Part shown: in pieces, positions 3,901-44,843 of the stretch | Position numbering within the stretch: the first letter of the stretch is position 1 | How the letters are laid out: every line of letters begins with the position of its first letter | Assembly (NCBI GenBank): GCA_028534125.1 | Contig: CM052816.1 | Coordinates: 33,978,001 to 34,042,000, forward strand | Direction: 5' to 3' | Source: Lama glama | Lineage: Eukaryota | Length of the DNA stretch: 64,000 nucleotides | Notes under the pieces: generated by a model | Told to the model about the DNA's origin: nothing | Database searches by the model: none | Seen by the model: the letters and a program-made list of their open reading frames with translations, nothing else | Program-made: the position numbers and the translations under genes

Positions 3901-5373
3901 TAGGCACAATTTAATTTCTTGTTTTAAACTAAATGCTTGTTCCATGATTAGACCTAGTTAATAAGTGAGATATAAAACTGAGAGTAGTATAAACATAATT
4001 ATGTACTAGTTCCAACATCGAGAGATAATTGAAATCAAATAAATTTTAAGAATAGATATAGTTCAATCAGGGCTAGTGATAAAGTTCTTTTTCTGAAATA
4101 GTAAAAATAGAGCTCTCTTTTAAATTTTCAATATTAATTTTCTAGCATTTCGAGGGTATTTTGAGCCTTTTCATTTTTTGATGCATGTATATTTGCATGA
4201 ATTTCACCTTACCCTTTTTAAAGATGTTCTTTGCATGTTATTCTTTCTCATACCTTCATAATAATTCCACATTTACTAATCTGCATTTTGCTATATTTGT
4301 CATTGCTTTACCCTTTGTTTTTTCAGTCTTTATCATAAAATCGATCTCATTTTTTTGCACTATAATTTTGTCTAGATAATGCAATTGTCAGTCTTTAAAC
4401 AGTAATTTCATTGAGCCAAACCAGATTTTGGAATTCTAAAGAGGTTAAGTTAGATGTTCATCTTCACAAAAACATTTTTTATTCCTTCATTTTCTACCAT
4501 AGGATCTATAAACATTTAAAATAAATCCTGAGTGACTGGTAATGAGCTGCCTGAAGATGGATAATATTAAATAAAGCTATAAAAACTTAAATGAAAGGAG
4601 GCCACGCCCAACTAATTTATGAGAAAGGGAATTTTTAACACTAACACATTCTCAACAGTTTAAAAAAAAGTGTAACATGTGACAGTTTGAAACTTACATC
4701 TTCATTTATTACTGATTCCTGCCAAAGGAAAATATTCCTCTAGTCCTTTCAGAAGAAGACATAATTAAGAATCAGTCATGGGCATTATTGAATATAAATA
4801 GGAAAATTTAGAAAATTGCTGTTTCCTGAATAAAAATTGCTTAAATATCGTGGAATTGTTTGTTAGCTTTTTTTTTATATTAGGACATATTCAGTTCAAC
4901 CTAAATCTAAATCCTAGGACATCTTCAATGAAAGTTAAATATAAAGCCTTTTTTGTGTTTTACTTAACCAAATTTTGTTCTGTAGAAACTTTTTGCTGAC
5001 TTCAAGGAGAGTTTAGATTATGCACAGAGAATTGAAATTCTCACTTATTGAAACATCTATATTACGTCAACCGATTGCTTAATTTCTTCCTAAGTAAATA
5101 TTATCAATGATTATGAGGTTCTGTAGAAAGTATACAAATTTAAAATAAAAATTATATCATTAAATTTTTTAAATTTCAAGACTGATCTCCTTCATGCCTA
5201 ATTGTTTGTTTCAATGAAATTTCTTGTTATAATATTTAAAATCCTTTGGGAAGTTGCATTTATTTCTTTTAAAGCTTGTTTTTATTTGATAAGAATAATG
5301 TAATACTAGCCAAAGAAAATAAAGATACATTTTAACTTTTGTTTAATAATACATTACTTTTTCTCTCATCTAA

Positions 5374-5661
<288 letters not shown>

Positions 5662-5682
5662 TAAAAGTGAAGCACTATTCAC

Positions 5683-6830
5683 TTTTTTTTTTGTACATAT
5701 ATATTTTTATTGAAGTATAGTCAGGTCACAATTTTGTGTCAATTTCTGGTTTACAGCACAATGCTTCAGTCACACATGAACATATATATATATATTCATT
5801 TTCACCATAAGTTACTACAAGATACTGAATTTCCCGTGCTATATAGTTTGAACTTGTTGTTCATATATTTTATGTATATTAGTAACTATGAATCTCAAAC
5901 TCCCAACTAATCCCTTCTTACCACCTCCTCCCTGGTAATCATAAGTTTGTTTCCTATGTCTGTGAATCTGTTTCTGTTTTATGAATAAGTTTGTCTTTTT
6001 TTTTATTATTATTAGCTTAGATTCCACATATAAGTGATACCATATGGTATTTTTCTTTCTTTCTGGCTTACTTCACTTAAAACGACAATCTCCAGGTCCA
6101 TGCATGTTGCTGCAATTGGCATTATTTTACTCTCTTTTTATGGCTGAATAGTATTCCATTGTATAAATATACCACAGCTTCTTTATCCATTCACATGTCG
6201 ATGGACATTTAGGTTGTTTCCATGTCTTGGCTATTGTAAATAGTACTGCTATGAATATTTGGGTGTATGTATATTTTTGAATTAAGGTTACCTCTGGATA
6301 TATGCCCGGGAGTGGGATTGCTGGATCATAAGGTAAGTCTATTTTTAGTTTTTTCAGGAATCTCCATCCTGTTTTCCATAACGTATGTAACAAACGTAGC
6401 TGCAGCAAACTACATTCCCACCAACAGTGTAGGAGGTTCCCCTTTTCCCCACAACCTCTCCAGCACTTATTGTTTGTGAACTTTTGAATGATGGCCATTC
6501 TGACTGTTGTGAGATATACCTATTGTAGCTTTGATTTGCATTTCTGTGATAATTAGCAATAATGAGCATGTTTTCATGTGCCTATTGGCCATTTGTATGT
6601 CTTCATTGGAGAATTGCCTGTTTAGGCCTACTGCCCATTTTGGATTAGGTTGTTTGTCTCTTTCTTATTAAGTTGTATGAGGTGTTCACATATTCTGGAA
6701 AACTGCCCTTGTCAGTCTCATCTTTTGCAAATATTTTCTCCCATTCCATATGGTTTGTTTTGCTTATGGTTTCTTTTGCTGTGCAAAGCTTATAAGCTTA
6801 ATTAGGTTCCATTTGTTTATTTGTGCTTTT
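5683..6830 (-). mobile_element. L1 3' end, tandem unit 1 (tail, 3'UTR, ORF2 C-terminus)
   Basis: T-run at ~5683, 3'UTR, ORF2 C-terminal motifs [15 protein letters not shown] and [27 protein letters not shown]. Confidence 0.95.
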
Positions 6831-7983
6831 TTTATGGATATATATTTATATTGAAGTGTAATCAATTTACAATGTTGTGTCAATTTCTGGTGTACAGCAC
6901 AGAGCTTCAATCACACATGAACATACATCTATTTTTTTTTCATATTCTTTTTCACCATGTTACTAAAATATATTGAATATACTTCCCTGTGCTATACAGT
7001 ATAAGCTTGTTGCTGATCTATTTTATAGATATATATGTAAGTTAATATCTGTGAATCTCAATATCCCAATTTATCCCTTCCTTCCCCCGTTCCCCCGGTA
7101 ACCATAAGTTTGTTTTGTATGTGTCTGAATCTGCTTCTGTTTTGTAAATAAGTTTGACTTTTTTTTAAGATTCCACATATGAATGATATCATATGGTATT
7201 TTTCCTTCTTTTTCTGGCTTACTTCACTTAGAATGAGAATCTCCAGGTCCATCCATGTTACTGCACATGGCATTATTTTATTCTCTTTTATTGCTGAGTA
7301 GTATTCTCTTGTATAAATATACCATAGCTTCTTTATCCAGTCATCTGTCATTGGACATTTAGGTTGTTTCCATGTTTTGGCTGTTGTAAATAGTGCTGCT
7401 TTGAACATTTGGGTGTTATGTATATTTTTGAATTAAGATTCCCTCTGGATATATGCCCAGGAGTGGGATTGCGGATCATAAGGTAAGTCTATTTTTAGTT
7501 TTTTCAGGAATCTCCATACTGTTTTCCGTTAAGGTATGTAACGAATGTAGCTGCAGCAAACTACATTCCCACCAATAGGGCAGGAGGGCCCCTTTTCCCC
7601 ACAGCCTCTCCAACATTTATCATTTGTGGACTTTTGAATGATGGCCATTCTGACTGTTGGGAGATGTACCTCATTGTAGCTTTGATTTGCATTTCTGTGA
7701 TAATTAGCAATAGTGAGTGTGTTTTCATATGCCTATTGGCTACTTGTATGTCTTGATTGGAGAATTGCTTATTGAGGGTTACTGCCCATTTTTGGATTGG
7801 GTTGTTTGTTTTTTCTTATTAAGTTGTATGAGATGTTTACATATTCTGGAAATTAAGCCCTTGTCAGTCTCTTCTTTTGCAAATGTTTTCTCCCATTCCA
7901 CAGGTTGCCATTTGTTTTGCTTATGGTTTCTTTTGCATGCAAAAGCTTATGTTTAATTAGGTCCCATTTGTTTATTTGTGCTC
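6831..7983 (-). mobile_element. L1 3' end, tandem unit 2
   Basis: Colinear with unit 1 at a period of ~1150 bp; stops at the same ORF2 position (tttgtgct). Confidence 0.95.
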
Positions 7984-8176
7984 TTTTATTAATATATTCA
8001 TATTGAAGTATAGTCAATGTATAATATTGTATCAATTTCTTGTGTACAGCAGAATGCTTCAGTCACACATGAACATAAATATATTTGTTTTCATGTTCGT
8101 CTTCACCATGTTACTACAATATATTGCATATACTTCCTTGTGGTACACAGTATAAACTTGTTTATCTATTTTATAC

Positions 8177-8226
<50 letters not shown>

Positions 8227-10905
8227 ATATCTGCAAATCTCAATATCTCAATTTATCTCTTCCTTCCACCTTTCCCTGTGGTAACCATAAGTTTGTTTTC
8301 TATGTTTGTGAGTCTGCTTCTGTTTTGTTCATAAGTTCGCTTGGTTTTTTTTTAGATTCCACATATGAGTGATATCATATATTCTTTTTTCTCTTTCTGG
8401 CTTACTTCACTTAGAATGTGAAGTCCATCCTTGTTGCTGCAAATGGCATTATTTTTATTCTCTTTTATGGCTGAGTAGTATTCCATTGCATAAATATACT
8501 ACAGCTTCTTTATCCATTCATGTGTCAATGGACATTTAACTTGTTTCCACGTCTTGCCTATTGTAAATACTGCTGCTATAAACATTGGGGTGTATGCATA
8601 TTTTTGAATTAAGGTTCCCTCTGGATATATGCCCAGGAATGGGATTGCTGGATCACAAGGTAAGTCTATTTTTAGTCTTTTCAGGAATCTCCATACTGTC
8701 TTGCATAACGTATGTAACAAATGTAGCTGGTGAAGTGTAGTTTTCACCAACAGTGTAGGAGGTTTCCCTTTTCCCAAAACCTCTCCGGCATTTATTGTTT
8801 GTGAACTTTTGAATGATGGCCATTCTGACTTGTGAGATGTACCTCATTGTAGCTTTGATTTGCATTTCTGTGATAATTAGCGATAATGAGTATTTTTTCA
8901 CGTGCCTATTGGCCACTTGTATGTCTTCATTGGAGAATTGCATTTTTAGCTTTACTGCCCATTTTTGTATTGGGTTGTTTGTTTTTTTCTTATTAAGTTG
9001 TATGAGGTGTTTATATATTCTGGAAATTAAGCCCTTTATCAGTCTCTTCTTTTGCAAATATTTTCTCCCATTCCACAGGTTGCCATTTGTTTTGCTTATG
9101 GTTTCATTAGCTCTTCAGAAGCTTATAAGTTTAATTAGGTCCCATTTATTTATTTGTGCATTTATTTCTATAGCTTGGGTAGACTGCCCTAAGAGAATTT
9201 TGCTGAGATTTATGTCAGATAATGTTTTGCCTATGTTTTCTTTTAAGAGGTTTATAGTCTGATATTTAAGTCTTTAAGCCATTTTGAGTTCATTTTTGTG
9301 TATGGTGTGATGGAGTATTCTAACTTCATTGATTTACATGAAGCTGTCCAGTTATCCCAATACCATTTGTTGAGGAGACTGTCATTACTGCATTGTATGT
9401 TCTTGCCTCCTTTGTCAAATATTAATTGACCAAAAGTTTGTGGGTTTATTTCTGGGCTGTCTGTTCTGTTTCACTGATTCATATGTATATTTTTGTATGA
9501 ACACCATGCTGTTTTGAGTCCTGTAGCTCTGTAGTATTGTCTGAAGTCTACCAGCTTCGTCCTTTTTCTTCAATATTACTTTGGCAATTCTGGGTCTTTG
9601 TTTTTCCATATAAATTTTAGGATTATTTGTTCTAGTTCTGTGATAAGTATCCTGGGTAATTTGGTAGGGATCACATTAAATCTGTAGCTTTCTTTGTGTA
9701 GTATGGCCATTTTAACAATAATAATTCTCCAGTCCAAAAGCATGGAATATCTTTCCGTTTGTTTAAGTCATTTTTAATTTCCTTGGTCAATGTTTTGTAG
9801 TTTTCCATGTATAACACTTTCACTTCCTTGGTCAGGTTTATTGATAGTATTTTATTATTTGGATACAATTTTAAAAAATGATTGTTTCTTTGCTTTTCTT
9901 TTCTGATACTTCAGTGTTATTGCAAAAATATGCAGCTGATTTCTGTGTGTTAATCTTGCATCCTGCTACCTTGCCAAATTCTTTTTTCATTTCTAGTAGT
10001 ATTTGTGTGGAGCCTGTAGGGTTTTCTATATATAGTATCGTGATATCCACATATAAGACAATTTTCCTCTTTTCTTCCAATTTGGATCCCTTTTATTTCT
10101 TTTTCTTGTTCAATTTCTATGCCTAGGGCCTACAATACTTTATTGAATAAAAGTGGTGAGAGTGGGCATCCTTATCTTGTTCCAGATTTTAGCAGGAAGA
10201 TTTTCAACTTTTCACCATTGAGTATTATGCTGGCTTATTTTCATTATAAATAATTTTTATTATGTTGAGATATGTTTCATATATACCCCCTTTTTTAGAG
10301 TTTTTTTTACCTTAAATGGGTATTGAAGTTTATCAAATGCTTTTTCTGCATCAATTGATTGATATGATCATGTGATATTTGTCCTTTCTCTTGTTGATGT
10401 GTTTTATCATGTTGATTGATTTGTGCATGTTGAAGCATCCTTGTGTCCCTGGGATGAATCCAACTTGATCATGGTGTATGATCTTTTTTATGTGTTGTTT
10501 GATTATGTTTGCTAATATTTTGTTGAGGATTTTTGCATCTGTGTTCATCAACAATATTGGCCTGTAGTTTTCTTTTCTGATAGTGTCTTTATCTAGCTTT
10601 GGTATCAGTGTGGTGGTGGCTTCATACAATGAGTTTGGGAGTATTGCCTCCTCTTCTGTCTGTTGGAAGAGTTTGAGAAGGATTGGTATGGCTTTTCTTT
10701 GTATATTTGATAGAATTCCCCAGTGAAGCCATGTGGTCCTGGACTTTTGTTTGCAGGGAGGTTTTTTATTGCTAGTTCTATTTTACTTCTAGCAATTGGT
10801 CCATTCATATCTGTTTCTTCTTGATTCAGTTTTGGTGTACTGTATGTTTGTAGAAACTTATCCGTTTTTTCCAAGTTGTCCAATTTATTGCCATATAATT
10901 GTTCA
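7984..10905 (-). mobile_element. L1, tandem unit 3, extending through the ORF2 RT domain; 5' truncated
   Basis: Same 3' end as units 1-2, then RT-region peptides ([36 protein letters not shown]); (TA)n near 8176-8221. Confidence 0.95.
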
Positions 10906-10929
10906 ATTAGTTTCTCTTTTTTTAATTTG

Positions 10930-12830
10930 AATTTTTGCTCTACCACCCTCTAGATACTTTATCATGAGGAAGTATTCCCTTTTCAGAAAGTTTCTTCATG
11001 CTTAAAATAGATATTATTACATAATATAAGTTATTGTTTAAGTAAATGAAAGCCTCGGTCTCATACTGACTTACATTTGCCTAGTTTACTCCCTTCTCTC
11101 CCTATAATTATTGCTTGTGTATCCTTCCAGAGTGTATAAAACATAAATATAAGAAATTATAAGTCTATTTTTAATTTTCTCTCCATGTCACAGTATGGTT
11201 TGTGGATTTGTTTTCATCTGTTTAAAAAGATCTTTTAATTTTAAGATTAAAATGTTGTCACATTTCTCCTAGTAGTTTTAATGATTCATTTTGAACATAT
11301 TCGTCACTGGTCCATTTGAAATTCTTTTTGGTGTGTAGTGTGAGGTGTCGATCCAGATGGCTATTGAGTTTTTCCAACAATATTTGTTAAATCATCTATT
11401 TTCCTTCAACATTGTAACTGATTTTAAATGTTATCTTTATAAAACACTAAATGCCCATTTCTTTTTCTTTTTCTATGTACTAGAATAATTTCAGTAATTC
11501 AGAATTATCTATCCTTTAAGCTTTGGTGGAATTTCCTCTTAAACCTTTAGTACCTTATGGCTCTTCTATGGGTAGTTCTTTGTCAGATTCTCCTATTTTA
11601 TATGGCTCTTCAAAAGGCTGATGTTCAGCCATAATGTGCATGTACAGGTAGGTTCAGTTCTTATTCTTTGAGGCCCCTGCCATAAGAGTCTCTGGAGTGT
11701 TTGTCCTGAATATCAGTCCCTTTAGATCTTCCTCTCTCTCTTTAAATTGAAGCATGGTTGATTTACAGTGTGGTGTTTGTCTCTGGTGTACAGCATAGTG
11801 ATTCAAGTATACATTTGTATACATTCTTTTTCATTATACGTTATTATAAGATACTGAATATCATTCCCTGTGCTATACAGTAGGACCTTATTATTTATTT
11901 ATTTTGTACATAGTAGTTTATATCTGCTGATTCCAAACTTCTAATTTATCCCTCCTCTACCCATTCCCCTTGGGTTACCATATGTTTGTTTTCTATGTTT
12001 ATGAGTCTGTTTCTGTTTTGTATATAAGTTCATTTGTGTGATTTTTTTTCCAGATTCGACATATAAGTGATATCATATATTTGTCTTCTTCTGTCTGACT
12101 TACTTCTTTTAATGTGATAATCTCTTGATTTATCCATGCTGTTGCAAATGGCATTACTTCATTTTTTTTCATGGCTGAGAAGTATTCCATTGTATAAATA
12201 CACCACAACTTCTTTATCCAGTTGTCTGTCAATGGACATTTAGGTTGCTTCCATGATTTGGCTATTGGCTGCTATTAACATTGGAGTGCATGTATCTTTT
12301 TGAATTAGGGTTTTCTCTGGGTTATATGCCTAGGAGTGGGATTGCTGGATCATATGGTAAATCTGTTTTTAGTTTTTTAATGAATCTCCACACTGTTTCC
12401 CATACATCTTTTTAATTCAATTTTAACAAATTATGCTTTCTTCAGTATTAAGTATTTTATCCCATTTTTCAAAATTTATTTGGCCATTGTTCAACAAAAT
12501 TGTGTCATAAGATTCCTTTCATTCTCTGTTTCTGTGGTTACTTCCCCATTTAACCAGTTCTTACTTTGTGTGTTTGCATTTTTTCCCTTTTTTTCTCCTT
12601 AATTAGTTTATTTGGTATTTAATCTATTTTATGTTTTTTTTTTTCCAATGAACCAGCTTTTGGATTCTAACTCGTGTATTTTTGTTCCTGTGTCTGTGAG
12701 TCTGTTACTTCTTTTCTTCCATCTGTTTTGTGGTTCATTTTCTATTTTCTTGAAGAAAACAGTAAATTATTTGGGAAATTTTCTTAGTATTTGCCTAAAT
12801 CATTGTTTGAGTTCCATAATCATGTGACTG
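10930..12830 (-). mobile_element. Highly degraded ancient L1 (L1M/L1ME-like) fragments hosting a younger L1
   Basis: Decayed antisense L1 phrases (tccatttgaaattctttttggtgtgtagtgtgagg; ttggtggaatttcctct; aaccagcttttggattc). Confidence 0.6.
11741..12402 (-). mobile_element. 5'-truncated L1 3' end
   Basis: 3'UTR plus WIKKLWCIYTMEYFSAMKKNEVMPFATAW; possible degenerate TSD tagatctt / tacatctt. Confidence 0.92.
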
Positions 12831-42955: not shown

Positions 42956-44194
42956 CTCCTTTTTTTTCCCTAGTTAAAAAAAATTTTTTTTTATTGAAGT
43001 ATAGTTGATTTTTAATGTTGTGCTAGTTTCTGGTGTACAACATAGTGATTAAGTCATATATATATACACACACACATATATATATACCTACACACATTCT
43101 TTTTCATTATAGGTTATTATAAGATATTGCATATGGTGCTGTATTGTAGGACTTTGTTGTTTATCTATTTTATATATATAGTAGTTTGTATCTGCTAATC
43201 CCAAACTCCTAATTTATCCCTTCCCTACCCTCTTTCTTTCCCCTTTGGTAACTATAAGTTTGTTTTCTATGTCTCTGAGTCATTTTCCTTTTCACAAATA
43301 AGTTCGTTTGTGTCATACTTTAGATTCCACATATAAGTGATATCATATAGTATCTGCCTTTCTCTTTCTGGCTTACTTCACTTAGTATGATAATTTCTAG
43401 GTCGAAAAATGGCATTATTTCATTCTTTTTTATGTCTGAGTAGTATTCTATTGTGTGTGTGTGTGTATACATATACATACATATACACACATGTACACAT
43501 CACATCTTGTTTATCCATCTGTTGATGGACATTTAGGTTGCTTCAATATCTTGGCTATTGTAAACAGTGCTGCTATGAACATTAGGGTGCATGTAGTCTT
43601 TTTGAATTGGACTTTTCTGTGGATATATGCCCAGAACTAGGATTGCTGGATCATATGGTAACTCTATTTTTAGTTTTTAAGACTCTCCTTTACCGTTTTC
43701 TATAGTGGCTGTACCAAATTACATTCCCACCAACAGTGTAGGAGGGTTCCCTTTTTTCCACACCCTCTCCAGCATTTATCATTTGTGTAATGGACAAAAT
43801 TCATTTTAGATTACTGTTTCTATACTTCTTTAGCTTGGAAACAGTGATAATGACAGAGAACATGAATGACTTCTTTTTTTCTCCAAAAACTCTTCTGCCT
43901 GTCATCTCTGACTTCTGATATTCCCCAGGTATAAGGGAAGGAATTTGGTGAATTGGGGAGAAGAATGATGGCCATTCTGACTGGTGTGAGGTAATACCTC
44001 GCGGTTTTACATTTCTCTGATAATTAGCAATATTGAGCAGTTTTATCTAGGACTTAAATTCCAGAATATACAAACAGCTCATGCAACTCAATAACAAAAA
44101 AGCAAACAACACAATCAAAAAGTGGGCAGAAGACCTAAACACACATTTCTCCAATGAAGACATATATCCATACGGATGGCCAACAGGCAAATGA
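42956..44194 (-). mobile_element. L1 with 5' inversion (twin-priming structure) and a foreign 180-bp insert
   Basis: TSD taagcattc at 42947-42955 and 44195-44203; antisense 3' part to ~44043; sense-oriented ORF2 piece ~44050-44194. Confidence 0.92.
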
Positions 44195-44843
44195 TAAGCA
44201 TTCTTTCATGAAGAGTTTAAGGGACAGATTTCCTTTGGAGAGGGCTGTGCTCTGTGCTCTGTGTCCTCCCTCTCAGGAGAGAGTCTACTTTGCCTCTAGC
44301 TTTGCAGGAAGCCATACATAGAAACCTGAGTGGTGTGCTTTGGTGTCATAGTGAAGGGAAGTGGCTCATGTGAAATACTCAGCACCTTTTGAAATGTATC
44401 AGGCCAAAAGAATAGTTGAGTGTTTTTCATGGTCAAAATACGGGCTGTTCAGGAGTGAGAAACATTAGTAGCAGACAGAATAGTGGAATGCAGGAAGGCA
44501 ACAGCTGCAGGGAGAAGTAAGGGCCAGCTAGAGGAGACACTGCTCACATTAATGTTGCTGCCTTTGGGAATCTCCAGGAAACATATTTATGACATGTGCT
44601 AGGCTCAGAGGGCAACAATGCCACATCAAAATAGTGCTAGGTAATGGAAATCCTTTCTGACTTCACTTCTCCCCACTTCACCAAATTCCTTCCCTCCTAC
44701 CCTTGGAAGATCAGAAGTCAGGGATGACAGGCAGAAGAGTTTTTGAGAAAAAAGAAGTCATTCATGTCCTCTGTCAATATCACTGTTTCCAAGCTAAAGA
44801 AGTGTAGAAACAGTAATCTAAAATGAATTTTGTCCATTACACA
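43784..44843. repeat. Inverted repeat, arms 43784-43963 and 44666-44843, spacer ~700 bp
   Basis: Hand alignment gives about 11 substitutions and 2 single-base indels over ~180 bp. Confidence 0.95.

Follow-up and report, generated by a model that had tools for sequence, protein, structure and literature searches.

Tandem repeats derived from part of a transposable element (TE), the 3' ends of long interspersed element 1 (LINE-1, L1) among them, are an already described class. In the available portions of two reviews (PMC6947457, also PMC9659126), the standard model is a duplication seeded by short repeats and followed by unequal crossing-over. The same sources cite Kapitonov 1998 for the common cetacean satellite, whose monomer resembles the 3'-terminal portion of L1. 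Two further systems are close, namely TE tandems formed by double insertion (McGurk and Barbash 2018, PMC5932611) and complex L1 insertions formed by template switching (PMC11702581; in vitro, PMC10830420). Here a related locus of the llama, Lama glama, is reported. The window, a stretch of 64,000 nt (GenBank assembly GCA_028534125.1, contig CM052816.1, positions 33,978,001 to 34,042,000, forward strand), contains a 5'-truncated L1 on the minus strand, from 5683 to about 10905, whose 3' end is present three times, head to tail. The array is a LINE-1 insertion and a TE-derived tandem, and not a satellite. No function is indicated for it, and it is real, old and most likely neutral.

The array shares with the described TE-part tandems its head-to-tail units taken from one TE part, a boundary repeat within their 5-10 nt range and one common junction. 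Unlike the expanded examples in the accessible text of those reviews (PMC6947457, PMC9659126), it has three units of 1.15 kb, is intronic and is frozen at about 13-15% divergence. With three units only, Kimura two-parameter (K2P) distances of 0.13-0.15 and no homogenisation, it lacks the properties of an L1-derived satellite. The comparison with the cetacean satellite, the closest named counterpart in kind, is one of description, not of sequence: both have units from the 3' end of a mammalian L1, but the satellite, as these sources present it, is high-copy and heterochromatic, whereas the array is a single three-unit locus. As in the double-insertion tandems, an intact 3' end is joined to the interior of its neighbour, and later expansion is ascribed to unequal exchange; in contrast to the tandems set out in the consulted part of PMC5932611, the junctions of the array carry no target-site duplication (TSD), the truncation points are identical and disabling lesions are held in common. 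The template-switch insertions (PMC11702581; PMC10830420) likewise show same-orientation pieces within one TSD pair and microhomology at the joints, but those that the excerpts describe combine pieces from different transcripts or parts of one, whereas here one 3' end occurs three times with one junction. In the literature searched, mostly without subscription journals, no report was found of this locus or of a triplicated L1 3' end of such form. The features of the element are as follows; ORF2 is the second open reading frame of L1, UTR the untranslated region and RT the reverse transcriptase.

5683..6826, minus strand: unit 1, 1144 nt; comprises an A-tail that includes (AT)n, the 3' UTR and about 265 codons from the end of ORF2
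6827..7981, minus strand: unit 2, 1155 nt; derived sites in common with both neighbours
7982..9159, minus strand: unit 3, 1178 nt; (TA)25 expansion at 8172-8221; runs into the L1 body
9160..10904, minus strand: L1 body, present once and 5'-truncated; spans ORF2 codons about 411-988 (RT region), with 6 stops and 8 frameshifts
6820..6850, plus strand: junction 1, where ORF2 meets the T-run of the following tail; TTTTAT as microhomology
7975..8002, plus strand: junction 2, at the same ORF2 position as junction 1; microhomology TTTTATT
6382..6396, plus strand: 15-nt insertion directly behind the HCWWEC codons; found also near 7533 and 8709, thus in all three units
6516..6517, plus strand: 1-nt deletion that shifts the frame near ORF2 codon 1109; found also near 7666 and 8838, thus in all three units
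5678..5688, plus strand: left copy of the TSD candidate, TTCAC plus T-run
10912..10922, plus strand: right copy of the TSD candidate, differing from the left at 1 of 11 nt; the AA behind it gives a TTTT/AA endonuclease-type site

The three units of about 1.15 kb that the original prediction had placed at anchors 6511, 7661 and 8834 were all present, each with the makeup given for unit 1. The body, 1.75 kb long and single-copy, is contiguous with unit 3. LINE-1 identity is supported by the alignment of codons about 411-1268 to full-length ORF2, which covers the RT region and the C-terminal HCWWEC motif; the open frame of unit 1 showed 66-78% identity to the best 120 ORF2 hits, some of which are named LINE-1 ORF2. 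An A-rich 3' tail (T-run at 5683-5693) and a 5' truncation (ORF2 homology stops at 10904) were both observed. All three tails consist of a T-run, an (AT)n block and then the normal L1 end, and the (AT)n block is absent from the other L1 ends in the window. The units contain 0, 0 and 2 in-frame stops, fewer than the rate in the body suggests; since each also contains 5-7 frameshifts, this is not read as selection.

The break in ORF2, which had been noticed to be the same in units 1 and 2 and to be followed by an AT-rich tail, was found at 6826 and 7981. It lies after TATTTGTGC in both units, whereas unit 3 continues there (9159), and after each break the sequence restarts with the T-run and (AT)n tail. 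The junctions read TTTTTTTAT and TCTTTTATT, both at one ORF2 base. At the breakpoint, TTTGTGC is followed by TTTAT(T) in unit 3, and the L1 near 53 kb reads TCTTATT; with a presumed ancestral state of this site, the microhomology between tail and ORF2 is 6-7 nt. TSD or flank sequence was looked for at both junctions and none was found. The units do not each have a TSD of their own; had they had one, and had both lesions belonged to the subfamily consensus, this would by the original prediction have refuted it. One 11-nt, T-rich candidate pair brackets array and body together. Matches of this quality number 10 others in the 64 kb, which corresponds to 0.4% of 25-nt stretches, a figure below the true chance since many lengths were tried.

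The shared lesions were examined next to the other L1s of the window, at 43, 49 and 53 kb. The 15-nt insertion is present in all three units, but the description of it as in frame held for unit 1 only, as unit 2 has an extra base and unit 3 a nearby 1-nt loss. When a 26-nt pattern across it was searched for with up to 3 mismatches allowed, 2 sites matched and none did in 100 shuffles, so chance is excluded; unit 2 is too altered there to match. The predicted 1-nt deletion was likewise recovered from every unit, near codon 1109. A further 1-nt deletion near ORF2 codon 1028 occurs in units 2 and 3 and is masked in unit 1 by a larger deletion, so that it possibly belongs to all three. Neither the insertion nor the codon-1109 deletion occurs in the L1s at 43, 49 and 53 kb, as had been claimed; in the 43-kb copy, the deletion site lies where the element resumes after an interruption. 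The last bases of the insertion are the reverse complement of 7 nt situated 10 nt further on, which gives it the look of a scar left by repair. At 11741-12404, a short fragment of an L1 3' end stops exactly where the units hold the insertion, which is probably a coincidence.

In order to place the insertion among other elements, 240 ORF2 proteins were inspected, namely the 120 best hits out of 8000 in one search and out of 1527 in another. None of the 240 carried it: 239 had normal spacing and one had an unrelated 6-residue insertion. Named camelid proteins made up 3 of the 240, and among the proteins listed no match exceeded 78% identity. As far as these sequences tell, this argues against the insertion being a common subfamily trait. 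The lesions can be called private only with respect to the L1s of the window and to the 240 database proteins, a set in which broken copies are seldom represented. In metagenome contigs, an 18-nt pattern of the insertion was found in 73 stretches at 72 loci, and 0 of the 72 aligned to the element; these matches were rejected as relatives and are chance hits in microbial DNA. Several database ORF2 fragments (P0067, P0068, P0071, P0072, P0187-P0191) show internal repeats of the C-terminal region, which could reflect chimeric assembly or further small duplications within L1s. In a Bactrian camel GTF2F2 isoform model (P0257), the final about 280 residues are an L1 ORF2 C-terminus, either an exonised L1 or a gene-model error.

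The identity between units, estimated by eye as 85-90%, was measured as 86-88% without gaps. The p-distances were 0.119, 0.138 and 0.125, and the K2P distances 0.130, 0.154 and 0.137 (standard error about 0.012), against 0.22 between the units and the nearest other L1 of the window, the 53-kb copy. Body and units are equally distant from that copy (0.184 and 0.171-0.186) and similarly decayed, which points to one lineage and one age. In the tree, the units and the 53-kb copy were split from older copies with support of 99.9/100. The units form a clade, with 104 columns where all three differ from the 53-kb copy and a stem to it of 0.051. Within the clade the terminal branches measure 0.057-0.083 and the internal branch 0.009 (support 57/62); no topology of the units was rejected (approximately unbiased test, p 0.25-0.73), so the tree is a near-star. 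Pairwise distances had been proposed as a check, equal values favouring a simultaneous origin. They are indeed nearly equal, but they do not decide the matter, because two quick successive duplications give the same picture and signs of later exchange are present.

Along the stem, non-synonymous differences per site (pN) were 0.0135, against 0.035-0.057 on the private branches, and the neutral part of the stem is put at about 0.01-0.03. Insertions and deletions common to all units number 2-3, against 7, 7 and 7 private to each (ratio 0.29-0.43, 95% range 0.03-1.4). The small stem pN and the few common indels suggest that the ancestor was already dead, though not for long, and that the copies were made close in time. 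A tally of CpG sites (11 decayed alike, 14 differing) was too ambiguous for dating the stem. Afterwards the units drifted apart neutrally by 6-8% each, without homogenisation. The mammalian neutral rate is about 2e-9 per site per year, at which the copies would be roughly 30 million years old.

Exchange between the units was assessed from the derived sites that they hold in common relative to the 53-kb L1. Units 1 and 2 share 13, units 2 and 3 share 13, and units 1 and 3 share 7. Simulation of a star gave about 7 per pair, and an adjacent sum of at least 26 had a probability of 0.01. This is moderate evidence for a likeness of unit 2 to the units on either side, the pattern expected from unequal crossover or conversion.

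Of the two mechanisms put forward by the original prediction, microhomology-seeded duplication with unequal crossover was found to fit best. The favoured explanation, to which we give a probability of about 0.65, is one insertion, a short decay in place, a DNA-level duplication between the T-tail and the TTTTAT site of ORF2, and then unequal exchange. An ordinary 5'-truncated L1 would have inserted antisense just behind an exon of the host gene TMEM232, as its tail, truncation and TSD candidate suggest. It would have decayed briefly, gaining the 15-nt insertion, one or two frameshifts and the aged (AT)n tail; these lesions are present in the copies, while their acquisition in place is presumed. 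A plus-strand DNA end in ORF2, ending TTTT(AT), could then have paired anew with the A-tail of the same element, 1.15 kb behind it, and been extended, so that the 3' end was duplicated. The junction itself is observed, and the route to it may have been replication slippage, microhomology-mediated repair between sisters, or a nick at the endonuclease-type site. Soon afterwards, unequal exchange between the two units would have produced a third with an identical junction, leaving unit 2 a patchwork, and the units would have diverged neutrally. A DNA duplication is favoured by the single ORF2 base used for both junctions, by the 6-7 nt of microhomology and by the lack of flank or TSD within. A single insertion is indicated by the one TSD candidate around array and body and by the equal distances of body and units to the 53-kb L1. 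The short period of shared decay and the excess of derived sites common to adjacent units also fit this course. In addition, L1 proteins favour their own RNA, according to the available text of PMC5860796; the lesions break ORF2, so a template carrying them would have needed rare help in trans.

Several observations weigh against this explanation. The contrast between adjacent and distant units is weak when taken alone (P = 0.068, star simulation). With six outgroups and with CpG and gap-adjacent columns removed (9 of 23 dropped), the shared sites fell to 5, 8 and 1, again a weak signal (P = 0.027, or 0.076 with all 23). The sites common to units 1 and 2 and those common to units 2 and 3 interleave, leaving no single crossover point. 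A mosaic with a single crossover, in which the left of unit 2 is like unit 3 and the right like unit 1, was sought and not found. Of the stem changes counted over 187 codons, 6 are non-synonymous and 5 synonymous (ratio 0.32, with P about 0.06 for a test against neutrality), and much of the stem looks like change in the source lineage, partly selected; from the sequence of the window alone, decay at this site is not distinguishable from decay of a source element. The strongest point concerns the breakpoints: the left one coincides exactly with the A-tail, and the right one resembles a TTTT/A endonuclease site, as priming by the ORF2 protein (ORF2p) would choose. The weight of this is reduced, since TTTTA sites are common (21 in 2.9 kb of the element). 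A less probable reading is that the initial duplication was the work of the L1 machinery itself: a 3' end rich in T, at the TTTT/A site within ORF2, would have primed on an L1 A-tail. The tail so used may have been that of the RNA once more (germ-line template jumping) or the genomic one of the resident element, following a nick by the endonuclease.

The RNA-based alternative to the favoured DNA duplication, also raised by the original prediction, is that the array was made at insertion: ORF2p acting in trans on the RNA of a defective L1 would have stopped twice at one ORF2 position, leaving a cDNA that ends in TTTT, re-primed each time on the A-tail and then continued into the body. The junctions do run from an ORF2 T-run into the tail with the polarity of first-strand synthesis, and the single TSD pair and the near-star tree agree with it. 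ORF2p yields template-jump concatemers in vitro and same-orientation template-switch insertions are known in cells, to judge from the portions of PMC10830420 and PMC11702581 at hand. Nevertheless, three rare things are required, a frameshifted template used in trans and two jumps at the identical base, and the junction tails are aged (a T-run of 6-7 and the shared (AT)n) instead of fresh and long. The excess between adjacent units would require later DNA exchange anyway, and no sibling with the insertion appeared among the 240 proteins, so this course of events is unlikely. Improbable as well is a tandem formed within a source element at another locus and brought here by retrotransposition of a single read-through transcript, an origin that would leave siblings with the junction in the genome as a small non-autonomous family. 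One TSD candidate around the whole and the part of the stem that looks like source-lineage evolution suit it, but no database protein among the matches listed exceeded 78% identity to the open frame of unit 1, and the insertion was absent from 240 of 240 proteins, in a search that sees open frames only, and from the other L1s of the window. Unit 3, which would supply ORF2, is moreover the most changed. As for a subfamily that carried the lesions, 0 of 240 proteins and 0 of 72 metagenome loci weigh weakly against it. Since the junction has no splice donor and unit 3 continues into the body, an origin by rolling-circle copying from back-spliced RNA was also set aside.

A double or nested insertion would involve a second L1 entering at TTTT/A in the ORF2 of the first, deletion of the remainder, and unequal exchange giving the third unit. 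The breakpoint is an endonuclease-type site, and tail-to-internal tandems made by repeated insertion are common in Drosophila non-long-terminal-repeat elements in the account given by PMC5932611. The two marks of that process in the same account, TSDs at the junctions and distinct truncations, are missing here, and disabling lesions in common are not expected of independent copies. Beyond 10904, no ORF2 remainder of units 1 and 2 is present, so the argument drawn from this absence against nesting holds. With neither remainder, junction TSD nor distinct truncations, this origin has little probability. An assembly artefact, already considered unlikely by the original prediction, is the least credible of all: the units differ by 12-14% with 7 private indels each, and the longest exact match between units is 48 nt. 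No sequencing run contained half of the sampled words, which would suit an artefact, but 19 runs (nine studies, five organisms) contained 0.37-0.42 of the words sampled from 5000-9300, where the unique flank gives only 0.16. These runs must therefore contain L1 sequence of, or close to, the array locus; their shares fit the whole array at about 3% divergence, or flank, one unit and body at more than 99% identity. Four more runs with shares of 0.03-0.05 were not counted as evidence.

If the favoured DNA-level duplication is correct, the locus is a clean and datable case of the first two steps from an L1 fragment to a tandem repeat, halted at three units. It is a miniature of how some satellite DNAs begin and changes no concept; it is probably also a lineage marker for camelids. 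Should the L1 machinery have built the first repeat, the array would instead be the fossil of a self-priming route that always gives tail-to-ORF2 units and a possible seed for L1 3'-end satellites. Many small arrays would then be expected, with breakpoints piled on ORF2 TTTT/A sites, and such a concentration on endonuclease sites genome-wide, if true, would implicate the enzyme of L1 itself in seeding tandem DNA.

The host gene was recognised from one exon.

5413..5660, plus strand: TMEM232 coding exon, 96% identity to dromedary TMEM232 (E 1e-44), residues about 475-557

The exon shows 4 differences in 85 residues from the dromedary protein, which by itself points to a different camelid species; its donor GT was read from the sequence at 5661-5662, and no other TMEM232 exon was found within the 64-kb window. 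Pfam and PDB searches with this exon gave no matches. The T-tail of the minus-strand L1 begins 22 nt past the exon, so that the element is intronic and antisense to the gene. In the accessible parts of two reports, TMEM232 is required for mouse sperm flagella (PMC11549365, PMC10296807), and around human constitutive exons young antisense L1s are almost absent within 500 nt (PMC6108849, as far as its available text goes). Here an antisense L1 of 5.2 kb starts 22 nt from a donor (5661-5683), a position that the human young antisense L1s of that study avoid, which raises a splicing question for this sperm-flagella gene. On the TMEM232 sense strand, a perfect donor-like AAGGTAAGT occurs at 6330, 7480 and 8657, one per unit; the window has no others, and the gene's own donor at 5661 matches less well than these copies. 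They are putative cryptic donors for TMEM232.

Two other L1s of the window differ in character. At 6-1934 lies a separate, decayed minus-strand L1 with ORF2 codons about 68-727; its distance from the body of the array element is 0.158 and it is not a continuation of it. The 43-kb L1 is interrupted by a 180-nt non-L1 segment (43784-43963), an inverted copy (88-97%) of 44666-44843, about 700-870 nt downstream, and it also holds an inverted piece at 44049-44197; this arrangement looks like a templated insertion with 5' inversion.

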